Origin: an uncultured Planctomycetota bacterium
Lineage (GTDB): Bacteria; Planctomycetota; Planctomycetia; Gemmatales; Gemmataceae
Direction of reading: 5' to 3'
NCBI GenBank assembly: GCA_963849325.1
Contig: CAWKHF010000006.1
Coordinates: 192,001 to 256,000, forward strand
Length of the DNA stretch: 64,000 nucleotides
The notes under the pieces are model-generated. The model saw only the letters and a program-made list of their open reading frames with translations, was not told where the DNA came from and did not search any database. Positions 13,906 to 48,032 of the stretch are shown one piece after another. The number at the start of each line of letters is the position of its first letter. Position 1 is the first letter of the stretch. A program made the position numbers and the translations under genes.

Positions 13906-13917
13906 ACGAAGCCATGT

Positions 13918-14050
13918 GTAGCCTAATCCCGCGCCGTCCGTGTGGGAACGGGGGAACCATGGGCCGGCCCGCGCCGGCCTTGGGGCTCAGGTTCGCGCCG
14001 CGAACCGGGGTACTTTCAAGCCCTGCCCGACAGCTAACCTCGTCGGCCGA
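13918..14050 (+). ncRNA. c-di-AMP (ydaO/yuaA) riboswitch
   Basis: Conserved blocks in the expected order: AATCC, CGGGGGAACC, TTGGGG, CCCGACAGCTAACCTCGTCGGC; lies upstream of a YdaO/KimA-like gene. Confidence 0.85.
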
Positions 14051-14151
14051 CCAGCGTCTCCCTGCTGGCCTCATTTGAAAGGGCACACCTGTCCCGGCGG
14101 TCCCGACGAAGAGCCCTCGTTTGTCCCGACCGCTCGCCGAGAACCATCCTC

Positions 14152-37710: not shown

Positions 37711-39171
37711 ATGAATCCCTTCCACGAATACGTCCGCAACATCACGCGCCGCCAGTTCTTCGCCGCCGGCGCCAACGCCGTCGGCTGGGCGGCGCTGGCC
37801 TCGCTGCTGGACGCCGACCGCGCCCACGCCGGCATCACCAGCACGACGCCGGCCGCCCAGACGCACTTTCCCGGCAAGGCCAAGCAGGTCATCTACCTGC
37901 ACATGGTCGGCGGCCCGCCGCAGATGGACCTGTACGACTACAAGCCGAAGATGCAGCGAGTGGTTACGACAAGGACCTGCCCGACTCCGTCCGCATGGGC
38001 CAGCGGCTCACCACCATGACCAGCGGCCAGGCGCGCTTCCCCATCGCGCCGTCGAAGTTCAAGTTCGCCGCAGCACGGCAAGTCGCGGCATGTGGGTGAC
38101 CGAGCTGCTGCCGTGGACGGCCAAGATGGTCGATGACATGTGCTTCATCCGCAGCATGCACACCGAGGCCATCAACCACGAGCCGGCCATCACCTACATG
38201 CAGACCGGCAACCAGGTCACCGGCCGGCCCTGCCTGGGCGCCTGGGCGTCCTACGGCCTCGGCTCGCTCAACCAGAACCTGCCGACCTTCGTCGTGCTGG
38301 TCGCCAAGCCGACCAACACCGAGCAGGTGCAGGCCATCTCCGCCCGGCTGTGGTCGTCGGGCTACCTGTCCGGCGAACACGCCGGCGTCTCCTTCCGCAC
38401 CAGCGGCGATCCGATCCTGTACATCAACAACCCGCCCGGCGTCACCGCCGACGTCCGCCGCAAGACGCTCGACGGCCTGAACGCCGCTCAACGAGATGAA
38501 CTACCGCGCCGTCGGCGACCCGGAGACGCACACGCGCATCCAGCAGTACGAGATGGCCTTCCGCATGCAGGCCAGCGTGCCGGAGCTGACCGACCTGGCC
38601 CGCGAGCCGGAGTCCACCTTCAAGCTGTACGGCGACGAGGCGAAGAAGCCGGGCACGTTCGCCAACACGGTCCTGCTGGCGCGCCGCATGGTCGAGCGCG
38701 GCGTGCGCTTCGTGCAGATCTACCACAACAACTGGGACACGCACGGCAACGTCGCCGGCCGGCTGCCCGACCAGTGCCGCGACGTCGATCAGGCGTGCTA
38801 CGGCCTGATCCAGGACCTGAAGAAGGCGCGGCCTGTTCGACGCGACGCTGGTCATCTGGGGCGGCGAGTTCGGCCGGACGATCTACTCGCAGGGCGGCCT
38901 GACGAAGCAGAACTACGGCCGCGACCATCACCCGCGCTGCTTCACGATGTGGATGGCCGGCGGCGGCTCGCGGCCGGGCACGATCTACGGCGAGACCGAC
39001 GACTTCTCCTACAACATCGTCAAAGACCCGGTCCACATCCACGACTTCCACGCCACCGTGCTGCACCTGCTGGGCTTCGACCACCAGCGCTTCACCTACC
39101 GCTACCAGGGCCTGGACCAGAAGCTGACCGGCGTGGAGCCGGCGCGGGTGGTCAAGGAGTTGCTGGCGTGA
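37711..39171 (+). CDS. DUF1501 domain protein with Tat signal, frameshifted
   Basis: [77 protein letters not shown]. Confidence 0.92.
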
Positions 39172-39267
39172 TGGCGCGTTATCGGTTAACGGAGCCCGCA
39201 GCGTCAGCGAGGGAGCTTCGGCCCTCGCTGACGCTGCGGGCTCCGAGGAGAATGGATCAACCCTCGC

Positions 39268-39702
39268 TCACCCGCGGGCCCCGAGCATCTTCTGAAACCT
39301 CGCCAGCACGGCTTGCAGATACTCTGGCTCCACCGGCTTGAGCAAGTGCATGTCGATCCCCGACTCGGCACAGCGCCGCCGGTCTTCCGCCTGTCCGAAG
39401 CCGGTCACGGCGATGACCAACGGCGTCTTGCGCGGGCGAGGGCCGATCAGCCGTCGGGCCACCTCGTAGCCGCTCATCCCCGGGAGACCGATGTCGAGCA
39501 GCACCACGTCCGGCTCGTGGGTCCGTACGCTCTCCAGAGCGGCCGGGCCATTCGCCACGGTCTCCACGACGTGCCCGTACATGCGGAGCAACATCGCCAG
39601 GCTCAGGGCGCCGTCGGCGTTGTCTTCCACGACGAGGATGTGCAGCCCGGCACCATTGACGGGGGCACTCATGGTTTGAACTCCTGCCGATAGGGTGTCC
39701 AT
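39268..39702 (-). CDS. Stand-alone CheY-like response regulator
   Basis: [37 protein letters not shown]. Confidence 0.92.
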
Positions 39703-40740: not shown

Positions 40741-41139
40741 TCACGAAGCGTTGACAACGTCCGTCCCCCGAGACGGTTTGCGTTTCCGCGGTCGGACGCC
40801 GCCACGTTTACTACCAGGAGGCGGAGGGACGGGACTCGGCGACGGTTCGGAGGGGACTTCGCGCAGCGCGACGATGTTCAGCCAGTGGCGAAACTCCAGC
40901 GTGCGCAGGCAGAGCGGACAGCGCAGGCGCGGCAAGTGCTCGTGGAAGAACGCCTTGACGCGCAGCCGGATCGTACGCACCGGACAGGGCGCGTGCGGGC
41001 ACGTCCACTCGCCCTCGAAACACGCCGGATGATCCGGTTTGTCGGCCGGTACTTCCGTATAAATGCGATCCATCAAGGCGCTGGCCGGCTGCACGCCCTC
41101 CAACGGCGGCACTACGCGGTAACATTTCGTCATTCGCAT
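40741..41139 (-). CDS. Small Cys/His-rich (zinc-finger-like) hypothetical protein
   Basis: GGGGAG RBS; WTCPHAPC ... RCPLC, basic tail; overlaps the stop region of the AlpA-like gene. Confidence 0.55.
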   Translation of the reverse strand: MRMTKCYRVVPPLEGVQPASALMDRIYTEVPADKPDHPACFEGEWTCPHAPCPVRTIRLRVKAFFHEHLPRLRCPLCLRTLEFRHWLNIVALREVPSEPSPSPVPPPPGSKRGGVRPRKRKPSRGTDVVNAS

Positions 41140-41348
41140 TCTCCCCGGTATGGGTAGGCGGACAACTCCTCCAGGTAGCGCTCGATGTCGGCGGCGCACC
41201 AGCGCGTGCTGCGGCGATGCGGATGTACCGGCGCCGGCAGCAGGGCCAACGCCGTCCAGCGCCACACCGTTCGTTCGCTGATCGACAACCGCCGCGCCAC
41301 GTCGCGCACGGTCAGCAAATCCGGTGAGATCGAGGGTGGCGAGGGCAT
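41130..41348 (-). CDS. AlpA/excisionase-like HTH protein
   Basis: LLTVRDVARRLSISERTVWRW....LLPAP......TRW...DIERYL. Confidence 0.85.
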   Translation of the reverse strand: MPSPPSISPDLLTVRDVARRLSISERTVWRWTALALLPAPVHPHRRSTRWCAADIERYLEELSAYPYRGECE

Positions 41349-41414
41349 GAGTGACCTGAAGAAAAAACTCGTTCGCGGACGTTGGCTGGGATCGACGCGC
41401 GGAAAACAATCCCG

Positions 41415-41443
41415 AGGATACTGTACAATTGTTCATGTTGCAA
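41415..41443 (-). promoter_or_regulatory. Promoter of the AlpA-like gene
   Basis: Minus strand TTGCAA-N17-TATCCT; the -35 box lies within the left target duplication. Confidence 0.55.
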
Positions 41444-41540
41444 GGGCTTTGTTGCCAAACTTCCGCTTGTTGCAAAACCGATCCGGTTTGTCGCAAAACC
41501 GTCCGCCTGGAGAACTGGCAACAATTGTTGACAATTCGGC

Positions 41541-41569
41541 TTGACACATATACAGATGTTGGGTAATTT
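41541..41569 (+). promoter_or_regulatory. Internal sigma70 promoter of the transposon
   Basis: TTGACA-N17-TAATTT pointing toward the HTH gene and tRNA. Confidence 0.6.
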
Positions 41570-41904
41570 CTTTCCTGGACAATCCGCAGACTCAGGATGA
41601 GTCCGGCAGATGATTCGCTATAGAGGGTTGTGGTCTTTGCCGAAGGCTCCGAGAGCCGAACTGGCGATTGTCCGTGCCGCAGTAGGCGAAGTGGATTCAT
41701 AAGATTGCCCAGGCGAGCCTGCTGTGAGAACGTGACGAAGTGCCGCATCGGTAGGGCGAATTCTCCCCCCGCCCGCGCTTCTCTTTGAAGCAGTCTATTG
41801 CTGGCGCGAAACCACGAGAGCAAGGGGAATAACAGTACCCTTGACCAGTGGCTTTGCGCCGATTTCTTCTTTGGCCACTGGCAAGGGAAAGCCAGAGGCC
41901 AATC

Positions 41905-42132
41905 ATGTATCGCAAATCTCGTCAAGTAACGGAACTGCTCGGTATCAGCTATTGGAAGCTGGTTTCGATGCTGCGCTCCGGTAAGCTCCCACAGCCACAG
42001 AAAGACGCGAGTGGCGACCTGATATTGTCTAGCCGCGATGTTGCCAATGCGCGTAAGGCGCTGGGGATCGACCGCCGCAAGCGGCCACGGCCTCGGAGTG
42101 CCATCATCACAGGCCCGGAGGATGGTAGATAG
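41905..42132 (+). CDS. Small MerR/excisionase-like HTH protein
   Basis: MYRKSRQVTELLGISYWKLVSMLRSGKLPQPQKDASGDLILS..DV..AR.AL. Confidence 0.7.
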   Translation: MYRKSRQVTELLGISYWKLVSMLRSGKLPQPQKDASGDLILSSRDVANARKALGIDRRKRPRPRSAIITGPEDGR

Positions 42133-42192
42133 GGAAAAGACCCGGCAACGTCGGCCACCAACTGACAGGAAGGAACCGACGCGCCGGGGAGT

Positions 42193-42278
42193 GCGGGCGT
42201 GGCGAAAATGGTAAACGCAGCGGTTTAGCAAACCGCCGTGGTTTTCACCACTTGGGAGTTCGATCCTCCCCGCCCGCA
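42193..42278 (+). tRNA. Class II tRNA with Leu-type body and AGC (Ala) anticodon
   Basis: Acceptor GCGGGCG/CGCCCGC plus A73; D arm GCG-AAAATGGTAAA-CGC; anticodon arm GCGGT-TTAGCAA-ACCGC; variable arm GTGGT-TTTC-ACCAC; T arm GGGAG-TTCGATC-CTCCC; CCA not encoded. Confidence 0.9.
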
Positions 42279-42609
42279 TTTCTTTCTTACGTTCTTTTTC
42301 GGACTTTGAGAAGTTGAAAAGCCTAACGAGCGAACCTTGCGGTTGCTCGCCGCCGGCGTAATCGTAGCGCAATTGAAGGGTATCTGTAGTCCGCTTCTCG
42401 GTCAAAGACGCATGAAAAAAATAGACCCAAACCCATTGCTGCCATTTACTTGCATCGATCTCCTGTATATAATTACAGCAGACAAAAAGAAAGCCTCCGC
42501 CGTTGCTAGTAACAACGCCGGAGGCAGATGCAACCGGCGCGGTAACGCCAGAAGCACCCTCGAAAGCCATTCTAGCGTTCCCGCCCCGGACAGGGGAAGG
42601 GAACAATCC

Positions 42610-43863
42610 GTGGACATCCGCGAACAGAAAGCCGTTGAGCTTGCCGACCGAGGCCGCGTCGTCAAGCGGCCGAACGGTTGGCTCATCTACTCCCTTAACA
42701 GCTCCGAAAAGTATTTCGTCACCGTGTTGCCACTGTCCTGTACTTGCGCGGATTTCGAGCTGCGGCAAGAGCCGTGCAAGCATGTCCTTGCCGTGCAAAT
42801 TACCCTGTCCCGTGAAGCCAGCGGTTCTCTCACCGAGCAGAGCACGGAGACGCCGCCGATCAACTGGCCGCGAAAAACCTACCAACAGGATTGGCCGAAC
42901 TACGACGCCGCGCAGGAAAACGAGAAAAGAGAGTTTCGCTATCTCTTGTCCGACTTGTGCAGTACCATTCCGCAGCCCGAACCCAAGGGCGGGACGAAGG
43001 GCGGCAGACCGGCCGCGCTTCTGTCCGACGTGATTTTCGCCAGCGTCTTCAAGGTCTATTCGGGCCTGTCCGGTCGGCGTTTCAACACCGACCTGGAAGA
43101 AACTCAAGAGCGCGGCTTCGTCTCTGCCGTCGTTCACCACAGCAGGATTGCCCGTTGCCTGGAGGACGAGGAAACAACTCCGCTCCTCGTCCGCCTCATC
43201 GAAGCGAGCGCTCTGCCGTTCCGGGCCATTGAGACGGAATTCGCCGTGGACAGCAGCGGCTTTTCGTCGTGCAAGTTCGACCGCTGGTACAGCGTCAAGT
43301 GGGGCCGCGTCATGTCGAAGCATTCGTGGGTCAAGGTCCACGTTATCTGCGGCAGTACTACCCACGTCGTTACCAGCGTCATCGTCGGGACCAAAGACTC
43401 TTCGGATGCTCCGCAATTCGCTCCCCTCGTAAAGACGACGGCCCGAAACTTCACCATCGGTCAAGCGAGCGCCGACAAGGCGTATGCGTCGGCCGAAAAC
43501 TTTGAAATCGCGGAGGAGTGCGGCGGCACTCCCTACATCGCCTTCAAGAGCAATGCGACGGGAGCGGTCGGCGGCGTTTATGAGCGCATGTACCACCTGT
43601 TTTGCTTGAACAAGGAAGACTACCTCCACCATTACCATCGACGAAGCAACGTGGAGTCCGTCTTCAGCGCCGTCAAGCGCCTGTTCGCCGACGCCGTGCG
43701 GAGCAAGCACGAAACCGCGATGAAGAACGAGGCTCTGTGCAAGCTGCTCGCCTACAACATTACCCTGCTGGTTCACGCGATCTACGAGCTTGGTCTTGAG
43801 CCTCGGTTCGCGGATGAACACGACGAACCCCCTTTCATCTTGCCGATGGTTCGGCCCGGTTAG
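42610..43863 (+). CDS. DDE transposase (IS5/IS4-superfamily-like) with an N-terminal SWIM zinc finger
   Basis: SWIM CTCADF...EPCKH; QDWPNY..AQ; AVDSSGF, WVKVH, SADKAY, YHRRSNVESVFSAVKR. Confidence 0.92.
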   Translation: MDIREQKAVELADRGRVVKRPNGWLIYSLNSSEKYFVTVLPLSCTCADFELRQEPCKHVLAVQITLSREASGSLTEQSTETPPINWPRKTYQQDWPNYDAAQENEKREFRYLLSDLCSTIPQPEPKGGTKGGRPAALLSDVIFASVFKVYSGLSGRRFNTDLEETQERGFVSAVVHHSRIARCLEDEETTPLLVRLIEASALPFRAIETEFAVDSSGFSSCKFDRWYSVKWGRVMSKHSWVKVHVICGSTTHVVTSVIVGTKDSSDAPQFAPLVKTTARNFTIGQASADKAYASAENFEIAEECGGTPYIAFKSNATGAVGGVYERMYHLFCLNKEDYLHHYHRRSNVESVFSAVKRLFADAVRSKHETAMKNEALCKLLAYNITLLVHAIYELGLEPRFADEHDEPPFILPMVRPG

Positions 43864-44091
43864 CGGCTCCGGGGTTTTGCAACAGAATACCGGCCTGTTG
43901 CTAAACTGCTGATCCTGTTGCAAAACCTCTGTTGCTAAACTGGTTTGGCAACAAAGCCATGTTGCAAGAGAAAAAAATTGACTGCGGACGGATGGCGCGA
44001 GGTGGCACGAAATGGCGGCAAATGACAGGAAGGGCGGGGACCGGACTTCGTTTTGCCCGAGGGGACGGCTACCATGAGCGGGGAGGTGAGT

Positions 44092-44385
44092 ATGAATGAA
44101 TTACCCGCTCCGCCGGATGCGGCCGGCGATCCCGAGTCCGTGGAACTGCTGCGGGCCTGGGTCGTGCGCGAGACGCTGCAATGCTCGCTGCAAGCCGATG
44201 TCTTCCCCGACCCCGGCACCTGGGGCGCCGTCCTGGCCGACGTGGTTCGCTACGTCGCCAGCGCCGTCGAGCAGCAGGACGGCACCCCCGCCGCCCAGAC
44301 GGCTCGGCGCATCCTCGATGTGTTCGCCGAGGAGATGCGCTCCTCTCCCGATGAAGGAGCGACCCCCACAGAGCCTGAAGCGTAA
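44092..44385 (+). CDS. DUF5076-like small protein
   Basis: ELP.PPDA..D.ESVELLRAW, P.TWG..LAD..R.VA; the stop codon is supplied by a family-B REP. Confidence 0.75.
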   Translation: MNELPAPPDAAGDPESVELLRAWVVRETLQCSLQADVFPDPGTWGAVLADVVRYVASAVEQQDGTPAAQTARRILDVFAEEMRSSPDEGATPTEPEA

Positions 44386-44414
44386 GCGAAGAGTATCCCT
44401 TCTTCGCTTACGCT

Positions 44415-47400
44415 TCAGGCTGTTAGCGCATCCCGGACGCCGGCCGCTCCGACGCCTTGCGCAGGCGCTGGTCGGGGCCGTTGTTTCCACGCCTTGACGT
44501 CCTCTTGCAGCACCTGGACCGCCTTCGTCAACTGCACGTCCACGCCGCGCGGCATCTGGCCCGGCTCGGGCCAAACGATGGGATCGGGCACGGCGCCGTT
44601 CAACTCCATGTCCTCGCCGTCGTTGACGAGGAACCAGCCGCGGTACGGTACGCGGATCAGGCCGACGTCCATGATGAGTGCCGCTCCGGTGCTGACGACG
44701 CCGCCGGCGGTGGGCACGCCGACGAGCCGGCCGCGCTTCAGCGTTTTGATGGCGTGACTGAAAATCTCGGCGTTGCTGAAGCTGTTCTGGTTGCACAGCA
44801 CGACGATGGGCTTGTTCCAGGTGGCGTAGATCTTGCGGTCGTGCGGGTAGCCGGGTCCGCCGCCGCGCGGCACGGTGACGGCGTGGACCGGCTGCGTCAG
44901 GGCCGTCAGCAGGTGGTCCGCCGTGTTGCCGCCGCCGTTCTCGCGCACGTCGATGACCAGGCCGTCCTTGCCGGCGCCGACGGCGTACAACTGTTCCTCG
45001 AACTTGCTGAAGCTGACCGGGTCCATGGCGCTGATGTGCAGGTAGCCCAGCGTCCCCCGCACGGCGCGAGCCACCTCTCGGCGATTGTGTTCCAGCCAGG
45101 CCTGGTAAAGCAGCGGCGGCACCAGCTTGTACGAGATCGGACGCAGGACCACGTCGCGCTCCTCGCCCTCGGTCCCGCGCACGCGCAGGTACACGTCGCG
45201 CGGCAGCGGGCCGTTCAGCACGCGCGTTAAATCCATGTCCGGCTCGACGGCCGTATCCTCGATCTTGAGGATGACTTCGCCCGCGCGCAGACGGCCCTTC
45301 TTCTGGTCGGCCGGCCCGCGCGGCAGCACGTCGCGCACCTTCAGTCCCGGACCCGGATAGTCCGGCTGGAAACGCACGCCCAGGTGCGCGGTCGTCTCGG
45401 ACCATTTGGCGGAGGGCGCCTCCGCCGCCGGCGGATGGAAGCGGACGAAGCCTGGACTGCCGGGCGGATAAAAGCCCAGGTGCGAGCCGTTCAATTCGCC
45501 GAGCATCAGCTGAACGACGGTGGTGAACGCCTCGCTGTCGGGGGCCTCGGCGGCCCTATCGAGATACTTGCGGCGGATGGCCGGCCAATCGCGGTTGCCG
45601 AGGCGCTCGTCGTACCAGCGATCGCGGCATGGTGCGCCAGCACAGATCGAAGGCGGCGCGGTTGCGCTGGGCCAGATCCACGCGCTGCAAGGCCTGGAAG
45701 CGATAACCTCCCGGGACCGATTCGCCGGCCGCAGTGGACGCCGGGCCGCGCCGCGCCGGCTCGGCCGGCTCGGTTGTCGCCGACTTCGCCGCGCCCGGCG
45801 TGAAGCTCGCCGGCAGGCCGTTCGACAACCACACCACCTGATTGCCCTGTTTTAGCCAGCGCGGCCGGCTGCCCGTCTGCGCCGTCAGGAATTTCGGTTT
45901 GAGATCGTCGGGGACCTCGATGGTGTACGTCCCTCGTTTGCCCTCGATGACGGCCGTGAAGGCCAGCTTCTTCGAGTCCGGCGACCAGAACAGGCCACTC
46001 TCCGTCGCATGGGGGATCGAGACGCGATGAAGGCGCGCGTGAATGTTGTCGAAGTCGATGACCACCTCCGGCGCCCGCGCCGGTCCCGCGGCGCGGTTGT
46101 CCTCGGCGACGCCTTTCTTTTTGCGCACTTTGTTGATCTTTTCCAGCGCTTTATCGAGGCTGCGTCCGCGTCCGCCTTTCTCATCGTCCTCGGCGCGGAG
46201 CCAGACGTAATGGATGTCCACCTCGGTCAGTCCGCGCCGTCCGGTGAAGGCGAGGAGGCGACCGTCCGGCGACCACACCGGGTTGCCGTCGTTGTAGGGA
46301 TGGCGCGACAGGTTGAACGGCTTGCGCGAAGCGTCGGCAGGCACGATCCAGACATCGCGGTTGAAATCGCTGTCGCTGTGGGCGTAGACCAGCCATTTGC
46401 CGTCGGGCGACCAGTCGTATTCCAGCTCGTCCCACGATGGCACCAACCGCCGGGCGTTGCGGCCGTCGGCGTCGGCGATCCACAGATCGCCCCGGCCGCG
46501 CAGGTAGGCGAGGCGCGAACCATCGGGGCTGAAGGTCAGGTTCGACTTGACCTCGCCGTCGTCGCTCAAGCGTTCGAGCCGGAAGCGGCTGTTTTGCCAC
46601 CACGGTTTATTGGGGTCGGCGCGGACGGCGCGCCAGATGTCCGAGCGCGCTTCGCGGTCGGCCACGAACAGGAGCGTCTGTCCGTCCGGCGCGAAGACGG
46701 GACGCTTTTCCTCCTCGGCGGTGGCCGTCACCTGTCGCGGCTCGCGCAGCTCGGTATCCATGACCCACAGGTCACCGCCGGCGATGAAGGCGACCTCCAG
46801 GCCGTCCGCCGTGAACGCCGCCTCGCTCGCCTGCCGCAGGACACGGTTCTCGATGCGGTCCTTCACTGGGTCGCTGTCGTGGCGGACTTCGATCTTCCAC
46901 GGTTTTTTGTCTCGGCCGGGGTGCAGACCATAGAGGTCGAACAGGTGGCGGAAGACGAGCGTGGAGCCGTCGCGGGAGACGCACGGAAAGACAACCGAGT
47001 CGTCGCGGAAGTGCGTCAACTGTTCGCCCGAGCCGGAGGCGAGGTCATGGACCCAGAGGTTGAACGAACCGCCGTGCGCGCCGACGTAGTAAAAGCCCTT
47101 ACCATCCGGCTTCCACAGCGGCCAACGGCAGCCGGTGTCCTCGTCGAGCAAGCGACGGAACGTCCGGGCTTGGAGATCGTAGAGCCAGATCTGGCTGGCC
47201 TGCGAGCCGCGATAGCCCTTGCGCCACCAGGCCGGACCCTCGCGCGTGAACAGCAAGCGCTTGCCGTCGGGCGACAGGCAGCCGTTCTGCCCATAGTCGT
47301 CGAACAGCAGCCGCTCGACCTGGCGCACCTCCGCACCGATGGAGAAGAAGCGTTCGGCGTGGCGCCAGAAGTGATCGCGGACAGCGTTGATCAGGAGGCG

Positions 47401-47937: not shown

Positions 47938-48032
47938 GGGAGCGTTTGCACCTCTGGTGGGGGCCCTGGTCTTCAAAACCAGTGGCGGGTTTGAACAAAG
48001 CTCGCTGTGGGTTCGATTCCCATACGCTCTCG
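47938..48032 (+). tRNA. selC: tRNA-Sec (UCA)
   Basis: 8-bp acceptor GGGAGCGT/ACGCTCTC plus G73; TGGT D loop; CTGGT-CTTCAAA-ACCAG with TCA at 47973-47975; long variable arm; GTGGG-TTCGATT-CCCAT. Confidence 0.92.

Follow-up and report, generated by a model that had tools for sequence, protein, structure and literature searches.

Nematodes carry nev-tRNAs, class II tRNAs that are derived from tRNA-Leu and have Gly or Ile anticodons; in the part of the original report drawn on here, they were charged only with leucine in vitro and GGG was decoded as Leu (Hamashima et al. 2012, PMC3333845). Acidobacteria and soil metagenomes encode allo-tRNAs, in which a long variable arm is joined to anticodons spread over many codons and stops, and amino acid identity is set by the tRNA body. 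According to the sections of that study used here, some allo-tRNAs are found near toxin-antitoxin genes or overlap a transposon-related open reading frame (ORF), and its authors suggest that some are unused in translation (Mukai et al. 2017, PMC5389517). In Streptomyces and Kitasatospora, tRNAProX and its synthetase ProRSx provide a third kind of mismatch between body and anticodon; the account of them in the relevant section of a 2024 review includes an AGC anticodon, A34 throughout, and mistranslation when they are expressed in E. coli (PMC11415595). Here, we describe a leucine-bodied tRNA gene with an alanine anticodon, AGC, that is carried by a transposon in an uncultured Planctomycetota bacterium of the family Gemmataceae. 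The gene occupies positions 42193 to 42278 (plus strand) of a 64,000-nt stretch of DNA, referred to below as the window (GenBank assembly GCA_963849325.1, contig CAWKHF010000006.1, positions 192,001 to 256,000), and the transposon occupies positions 41445 to 43958. This tRNA is one member of a family in which leucine-bodied tRNA genes share a conserved cloverleaf and differ from copy to copy in their anticodon.

Like the nev-tRNAs, the members of this family place non-leucine anticodons on a leucine-derived class II body. However, nev-tRNAs are eukaryotic, nuclear, and nematode specific, with no transposon link reported in the part of that paper considered here, whereas the present family is bacterial and mobile, and its charging with leucine is predicted. 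The likeness to allo-tRNAs lies in the spread of anticodons over one body type (15 triplets among 26 members here), but the allo-tRNAs covered by the sections cited above have 8/4 or 9/3 stems and mostly serine identity, in contrast to the 7/5 stems, A73, leucine body, and location in defined insertion sequence (IS) elements seen here. As far as the review section describes it, tRNAProX shares with the present tRNA a natural occurrence in GC-rich soil bacteria, an AGC anticodon, and the otherwise rare A34; it differs in having proline identity, A33, and a dedicated, co-encoded synthetase, whereas the present tRNA has a leucine body, U33, and a transposon location in a genome with one LeuRS locus. 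The carrying element itself resembles IS4/IS5-like and IS1595 elements in its DDE transposase, terminal inverted repeats, target duplication, and internal extra genes, and it is unlike known IS elements with passenger genes in that it carries, as its passenger, a tRNA gene whose anticodon does not fit its body. Our literature search, which did not extend to subscription-only papers and supplements, found no description of bacterial leucine-type mismatched tRNAs or of IS-borne tRNAs, and no leucine type is listed in the portion of the 2024 review that deals with bacterial mismatched tRNAs (PMC11415595). Judged from their sequences, the members of this family are best viewed as bacterial, canonical-shape, leucine-type mismatched tRNAs that would work like nev-tRNAs, allo-tRNAs, and tRNAProX in principle while belonging to none of these groups.

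ARAGORN made a single tRNA call at this locus (42192 to 42279, anticodon agc), and the Rfam tRNA model spans positions 42193 to 42278 from end to end and scores 53.3 bits (gathering score, 29; E value, 1.2e-08). When the sequence is drawn as a cloverleaf, the acceptor, D, anticodon, and T stems have 7, 3, 5, and 5 bp, respectively, which are 100% Watson-Crick, and the 17-nt variable region contains a 5-bp stem, also entirely Watson-Crick, and a 4-nt loop. The anticodon loop is TT-AGC-AA, with the anticodon at positions 42227 to 42229 and U33 kept, and the gene also has T8, A14, A15, G18G19, the T-loop TTCGATC, a G:C pair at 3:70, and the discriminator base A73 at position 42278. An earlier interpretation made from the DNA letters alone (the sequence-only reading) had described a flawless 7/5 cloverleaf with a long variable arm, A73, and AGC at this position, and all of these structural statements proved correct by ARAGORN, Rfam, and direct reading. 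Minimum-free-energy folding of the tRNA did not return the cloverleaf, and we gave this result no weight.

The sequence-only reading had also assigned the body to the leucine type, and both of the comparisons that we made support this. A pattern consisting of the acceptor 5' strand and D arm of the tRNA, with up to two mismatches, matched 135 of the 401 Planctomycetota genomes scanned, and all 30 of the matching loci that we fetched were canonical tRNA-Leu genes (taa, tag, cag, or gag). We also built nhmmer profiles, with the anticodons masked, from canonical class II tRNAs of the host genome and of the phylum (36 Leu, 13 Ser, and 6 Tyr). The AGC tRNA scored 38.8 bits with the Leu profile and 19.8 bits with the Ser profile and had no match to the Tyr profile; the training sets are unequal in size, and the margin between these scores counts more than the absolute bits. 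The Leu profile ranked first for all 26 of the tRNAs with non-leucine anticodons (hereafter, odd tRNAs) that we collected. For bacterial LeuRS, the part of the work of Yao et al. used here identifies A73, U8-A14, G18-U55, and G19-C56 as critical and the anticodon arm as dispensable for aminoacylation (PMC2377443). We found A73, U8, A14, G18G19, and T55C56 in the AGC tRNA, and this core is invariant in the family alignment, with the pairings read from the sequence. The tRNA departs from tRNA-Leu in its anticodon, which is AGC rather than NAG or YAA, and it departs from tRNA-Ala in having G:C at 3:70 and a long variable arm in place of a short loop. AlaRS requires G3:U70, a pair that is seen in 0 of 25 family members, and the G:C pair in the AGC tRNA confirms the earlier statement that it lacks the alanine identity pair. 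The gene is an intact class II tRNA gene that combines a leucine-type body with an AGC anticodon.

The AGC tRNA gene is present in a single copy in the host genome (G000; 8.16 Mb, 65% G+C) and is supernumerary there, as tRNA-Ala genes with the anticodons TGC, GGC, and CGC (two genes each) are found elsewhere in the genome. In 1,328 long ORFs of this genome, GCU has a frequency of 8.3 per 1,000 codons and makes up 7.6% of Ala codons, which bears out the earlier expectation that this codon is uncommon in the GC-rich host. The sole LeuRS locus found in the host genome (C6:455532-458237) contains a gene that is broken over several frames, and neither a second LeuRS gene nor another dedicated synthetase gene was found there. 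In the same genome, arrays of 7 to 13 tRNA genes occur at three places (C1:515629-516193, C4:433741-435175, and C12:838476-839555) and include 74-nt tRNAs with the leucine anticodon caa or taa and without a long variable arm.

A BLAST search with the 86-nt tRNA gene identified full-length homologues in 5 of 252 Gemmataceae genomes, the host included, each with its own anticodon: AGC in the host, TTC in the congeneric genome G002 (86% identity to the AGC tRNA), CCC in G464 (82%), TTA in G587 (76%), and TGG in G011 (76%). In addition, a 300-nt soil-metagenome contig covers positions 42135 to 42291 with 14 differences (91% identity over 157 nt), among them a G-to-C change at position 42228 that makes the anticodon ACC, and a second metagenome contig (L250) has the sequence that leads into the tRNA (83% identity over 142 nt) followed by tandem tRNAs with the anticodons ACC (274 to 363) and TTC (368 to 456). 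The sequence-only reading had proposed a search for homologues with the same anticodon as a check; the same body was found, with TTC, CCC, TTA, TGG, or ACC, all of them non-leucine, in place of AGC. For a wider view, we searched for a D-arm pattern in genomes that each represent one species, fetched 80 loci from the 118 stretches listed, and found a tRNA over the pattern in 59 of the 80. Among the matches listed, 35 of these 59 tRNAs have leucine anticodons and 24 have non-leucine anticodons (TGG, CAC, TTA, CTA, TTC, CCC, ACC, AGA, AGG, TGA, TGC, CGC, and TTG), and the non-leucine tRNAs come from Planctomycetota, Acidobacteriota, Gemmatimonadota, Actinomycetota, Verrucomicrobiota, and Pseudomonadota. 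The 15 different non-leucine triplets of the 26 family members occupy positions 34 to 36, and A34 recurs among them (AGC, ACC, AGA, and AGG).

In viral contigs, 76 pattern matches contained 71 tRNAs, of which 59 have leucine anticodons and 12 have irregular folds (8 "tat" tRNAs of 78 nt, 3 "gtt" tRNAs, and 1 with an undetermined anticodon), so phages are not the main home of the family. In Gemmatimonadota, a leucine-bodied CAC tRNA is common to four genera (loci L094, L109, L114, L144, and L111), and L111 has odd leucine-bodied tRNAs with the anticodons CGC and CAC in tandem (1994 to 2079 and 2501 to 2586, oriented). Three of four loops of these CAC tRNAs end in AC (CTCACAC once and ATCACAC twice), their contexts are chromosomal and non-syntenic, and the CAC tRNA may be a stable feature of this lineage and not a mobile one.

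We tested for covariation in an alignment of 25 family members against 500 shuffles. Standard pairs fill 96.3% of the alignment cells, compared with 72.2% in the shuffles, and this level was reached by none of the 500; changes on both sides were found in 19 of 25 pairs, which no shuffle reached either, and sliding the pair partners lowers pairing to about 40%. A73 is kept in all 26 members although all seven acceptor pairs vary, and the anticodon loop retains U33 in 25 of 26, a purine at position 37 in 26 of 26, and a pyrimidine at position 32 in 24 of 26. The tRNAs of the closest relatives are 76 to 86% identical, with compensated stems, while their linked transposases are 41 to 64% identical at the protein level. 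Selection acts on the fold of the RNA, and the AGC tRNA gene is not a decaying pseudogene, a view that the sequence-only reading had based on the perfect stems and that the compensatory changes support.

The AGC tRNA lies inside a 2,514-bp IS4/IS5-like transposon whose limits are defined by its ends, by a target-site duplication, and by an empty site. The left terminal inverted repeat (16 bp, GGCTTTGTTGCCAAAC; 41445 to 41460, plus strand) is the perfect reverse complement of the right one, which reads GTTTGGCAACAAAGCC on the plus strand (43943 to 43958, minus strand), and the element is bordered by two copies of the 10-bp direct repeat ATGTTGCAAG, at 41435 to 41444 and 43959 to 43968. In the congeneric genome G002 (locus L249), the flanks corresponding to 40836 to 41444 and 43959 to 44338 are contiguous, with homology ending at 41444 and resuming at 43959 and a single ATGTTACAAG between them, showing that the transposon inserted here after the host lineage split from its congener. 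This is a textbook empty site, and the tRNA came in as part of the element; the TTC tRNA copy of G002 is found elsewhere, between non-syntenic flanks. The motif TGTTGCWAAAC occurs eight times in the window, compared with 0.8 occurrences expected, and all eight are at the two ends of the element, three as left subterminal repeats (41450 to 41499, plus strand) and five as right subterminal repeats on both strands (43874 to 43953). The transposase gene (42337 to 43863, plus strand) was assigned from Pfam, NCBIfam, and homologue alignment, and the core that is conserved among homologues starts at position 42610. Its product has a SWIM zinc finger (3.8e-08) and a DDE_Tnp_1 domain (PF01609; 75.8 bits against a cutoff of 23, 5.2e-21); among the NCBIfam models, IS5_2 matches best and stays below its cutoff (103.4 bits; cutoff, 140), and the SWIM finger is outside that model.

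Between its ends, the element contains a small ORF, the tRNA gene, and the transposase gene, and no toxin-antitoxin, defense, or synthetase gene was found in it. This content, together with the inverted repeats, duplication, and empty site, identifies the tRNA as a passenger in a transposon and thus as a feature of a mobile element and not a device of the host, a context that the sequence-only reading had missed. With no toxin-antitoxin or defense gene in the element, the toxin, addiction, or anti-phage roles suggested in that reading are unsupported. The small passenger ORF (75 amino acids; 41905 to 42132, plus strand) possibly encodes a helix-turn-helix protein, with a weak match to HTH_17 (E value of 0.061, below the cutoff) and no NCBIfam match. 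It is followed by a conserved leader (42135 to 42192, plus strand) with a hairpin formed by CGTCGG (42149 to 42154) and CCGACG (42176 to 42181); this leader is kept in G002, in the soil contig, in L250, and in a paralogous element of the host genome (C5) that is described below. A T-rich trailer lies directly 3' of the tRNA (42279 to 42302, plus strand), and a T-rich tract is also present in the C5 paralogue, G002, and G464. Further downstream, 5' of the transposase and 3' of the tRNA, is a promoter-like site, TTTACT-17-TATAAT (42445 to 42473, plus strand), with 10 of 12 consensus matches and hexamers that are kept in the C5 paralogue and G002, and the transposase leader forms a conserved hairpin with 16-nt arms (42493 to 42525, plus strand), both of which carry changes in the C5 paralogue.

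We considered whether the anticodon loop serves as a transposase binding site, given that it has 9 nt in common with the subterminal repeat on the opposite strand. We treat this match as chance because the repeats of G002, G464, G587, and the C5 paralogue, whose own subterminal repeats read TGCACAAAAAC, match none of their own anticodons.

The C5 paralogue encodes a transposase that is 48% identical to the one described here, and its leader, trailer, promoter, and hairpin are conserved. The slot between leader and trailer (G000:C5:716836-716909; L208, 3837 to 3910) is occupied by a class I tRNA with the anticodon GCT and nearly the same acceptor stem. Degenerate copies of the transposase family in the host genome also adjoin extra tRNAs, with the anticodons TTA (C2:189639-189710; ochre type, 72 nt), GGT (C6:448563-448637), and CAT (C4:212020-212093). 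The transposase is present in 30 of 131 Gemmataceae genomes.

Other members of the tRNA family are associated with a different transposase family. IS1595-family transposases adjoin seven odd tRNAs from other phyla and the one in G011, and among the matches listed in the D-arm scan, 9 of 24 odd tRNAs have an IS1595 or SWIM-DDE transposase within 2 kb, compared with 0 of 35 canonical tRNA-Leu controls. In two Vicinamibacterales loci (L088 and L095, with the anticodons CTA and TTA), homology runs from the first base of the tRNA to the end of the IS1595 transposase gene, and the upstream flanks are unrelated; a simple search found no terminal inverted repeats around the IS1595 units. The spacer between tRNA and transposase at these two loci has a second T-arm-like hairpin and then an acceptor-like strand that ends in CCA or CTA, which may be a further tRNA-like piece that ARAGORN did not call. 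Other odd tRNAs adjoin phage integrases (two cases), a phage terminase (one case), or ordinary chromosomal genes, and in a Chthoniobacterales record (L132), a leucine-bodied TGC tRNA (approximately 1946 to 2029) has cas3 on one side and cas5d/csd1 on the other, within a type I-C CRISPR-Cas locus.

As to function, we put at about even the chance that the AGC tRNA is a transposon-borne leucine missense suppressor, a proposal that is built on sequence features. After transcription, RNase P and RNase Z would free the RNA, and a CCA end would be added; the single LeuRS of the host, which recognizes A73 and the tertiary core independently of the anticodon, would then charge it, and AlaRS would ignore it with G:C at 3:70. 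Pairing of A34 with U during translation would lead to the insertion of leucine, at a low level, at the rare alanine codon GCU, and relatives would act likewise at GAA, GGG, GGU, CCA, or the UAA stop codon. The invariant A73, the canonical loop around a hypervariable triplet, and the recurring A34 speak for a role in decoding or charging. It is possible, though on balance doubtful, that the leucine-bodied tRNAs as a group are mobile recoding cassettes, carried by at least two unrelated transposase families in many phyla, with each copy directing leucine to a different, usually rare, sense or stop codon.

Several observations weigh against a suppressor role. Sustained substitution of leucine for alanine would do harm, which calls for low or conditional expression that is, for this reason, hard to detect, and promoter scans found no sigma-70-like promoter upstream of the tRNA, with the limit that promoters of this phylum may differ from the consensus. 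The place of the tRNA, ahead of the conserved promoter-like site that serves the transposase and just before the T-rich tract that is kept in three relatives, would also suit an insulator or processing role. Among 30 transposase loci fetched, 5 of which extend too short a distance upstream to be judged, a same-strand tRNA is found 300 to 451 nt 5' of the conserved transposase core in only 4 of the 25 scored, so the tRNA is optional for the element. No known identity rule gives the GCT tRNA of the C5 paralogue an amino acid, and a structural role fits this tRNA better than decoding. In addition, the kept U33, purine 37, and A73 could be an inheritance from the ancestral tRNA-Leu and not a result of current selection. 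The absence of G34 from all 26 members could be taken as a sign that abundant codons are avoided, but we rejected it as decisive, as descent from leucine isoacceptors with U34 or C34 explains most of it.

We also examined two narrower ideas of how the tRNA might serve its own element, and rejected both. A private code for the transposase would place the cognate codons where homologues have Leu, and this is not the case: GCT, GCC, and GCG codons in the transposase of the host, GAA and GAG codons in that of G002, and GGG codons in that of G464 align with ordinary residues, and the G587 transposase is without an in-frame TAA. Since the cognate codons align with ordinary residues, decoding of the transposase is independent of the tRNA. 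A specifier-like pairing of the anticodon with the leader was dismissed because, when the conserved leaders of three elements were compared, no anticodon-complementary triplet was seen to co-vary; agreement in two of three at one position is within chance.

The best-surviving alternative to missense suppression, which we nevertheless consider rather unlikely, is that the tRNA is a structural module that does not decode, serving as a cutting site for RNase P and RNase Z or, with the T-rich trailer, as a transcription stop that insulates the transposase from outside transcripts, while the anticodon drifts. Its position ahead of the promoter-like site and T-rich tract suits such a module, as do the ability of the slot to take a class I tRNA that shares the acceptor stem but is otherwise unrelated, the placement of the tRNA at the very first bases of the conserved IS1595 units, and a transposase whose decoding does not need the tRNA. 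However, a cutting signal gives no reason why variation should concentrate on exactly the three anticodon letters while positions 32, 33, 37, and 38 stay tRNA-like, and A73 persists in 26 of 26 members despite variation in every acceptor pair. Most copies of the same transposase family are, moreover, without any tRNA, and many members of the tRNA family are far from any transposase.

We think it improbable that the tRNA is a neutral hitch-hiker, that is, a duplicated tRNA-Leu that was captured, underwent anticodon mutation, and is now silent or decaying. A single-copy, supernumerary tRNA that is optional for its element and has no promoter found upstream would be consistent with this idea, and many anticodons of the family (for example, TTA, TGA, and CAC) are one substitution from a leucine anticodon. 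In contrast, AGC is at least two substitutions from any leucine anticodon, and neutral decay is difficult to reconcile with perfect stems, compensation in 19 of 25 pairs, and tRNAs that are 76 to 86% identical when the linked transposases are 41 to 64% identical. There is likewise a slim prospect that the tRNA is used in some other way, through another synthetase, in non-ribosomal aminoacyl transfer, or as a regulatory RNA or a source of fragments. ProRS and ValRS read the anticodons TGG and AGG and the anticodon CAC, respectively, and 13 of the 26 members join one of these anticodons to A73; in addition, one member of the family lies between cas3 and cas5d. For the AGC tRNA, the G3:U70 pair that AlaRS requires is absent, however, no second LeuRS or dedicated synthetase was found in the host genome and none is in the element, and the leader has no co-varying triplet complementary to the anticodon.

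An assembly or base-calling error that hides a true leucine anticodon is very improbable: genes such as those for DUF1501 and LeuRS are split over frames in this genome, but the visible errors are indel-like and the tRNA is without an indel, at least two substitutions would be needed to reach any leucine anticodon from AGC, and independent assemblies of relatives carry TTC, CCC, TTA, TGG, and ACC, all non-leucine, on the same body. A search of public sequencing runs found none that contains the locus (best share of words, 0.07), with no RNA run among them, and four soil runs yielded only contigs of relatives. The DUF1501 gene (38090 to 39341, plus strand) is split over two frames, and indel errors are probable in the host assembly and may account as well for its completeness estimate of 84.7%.

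Three further features of the window lie outside the transposon. A tRNA-Sec gene with the anticodon TCA lies 5.7 kb downstream of the AGC tRNA (47938 to 48031, plus strand; Rfam, 72 bits; ARAGORN limits, 47940 to 48031), and it looks genuine because selA and selB, both split over frames, are present in the host genome (G000:C12:1294158-1297495). A palindromic repeat of approximately 50 nt at 44371 to 44421 has matches in both orientations at over 50 sites in the host genome and at a few in G002, and it may be an element of the repetitive extragenic palindromic or miniature inverted-repeat transposable element type. A cyclic di-AMP riboswitch of the ydaO/yuaA type is found at 13910 to 14063 (plus strand; 48.1 bits against a gathering score of 38).

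What is unexpected in this family is that its members travel in insertion sequences and that the anticodon changes from copy to copy on a leucine-type body. With LeuRS ignoring the anticodon, their decoding is easy to test, and a conserved body with a changing anticodon amounts to a natural suppressor series. The tie to transposons with defined ends raises the question of why a jumping gene would carry a tRNA with the wrong reading of its codon. Should these tRNAs be active, annotation from the anticodon alone ("tRNA-Ala" for the gene described here) would be wrong for leucine-bodied mismatched tRNAs, and the meaning of codons in soil bacteria would be blurred locally and transferably. If the leucine-bodied tRNAs are indeed mobile recoding cassettes, soil bacteria would naturally harbor a family of missense and nonsense suppressors that spreads horizontally.

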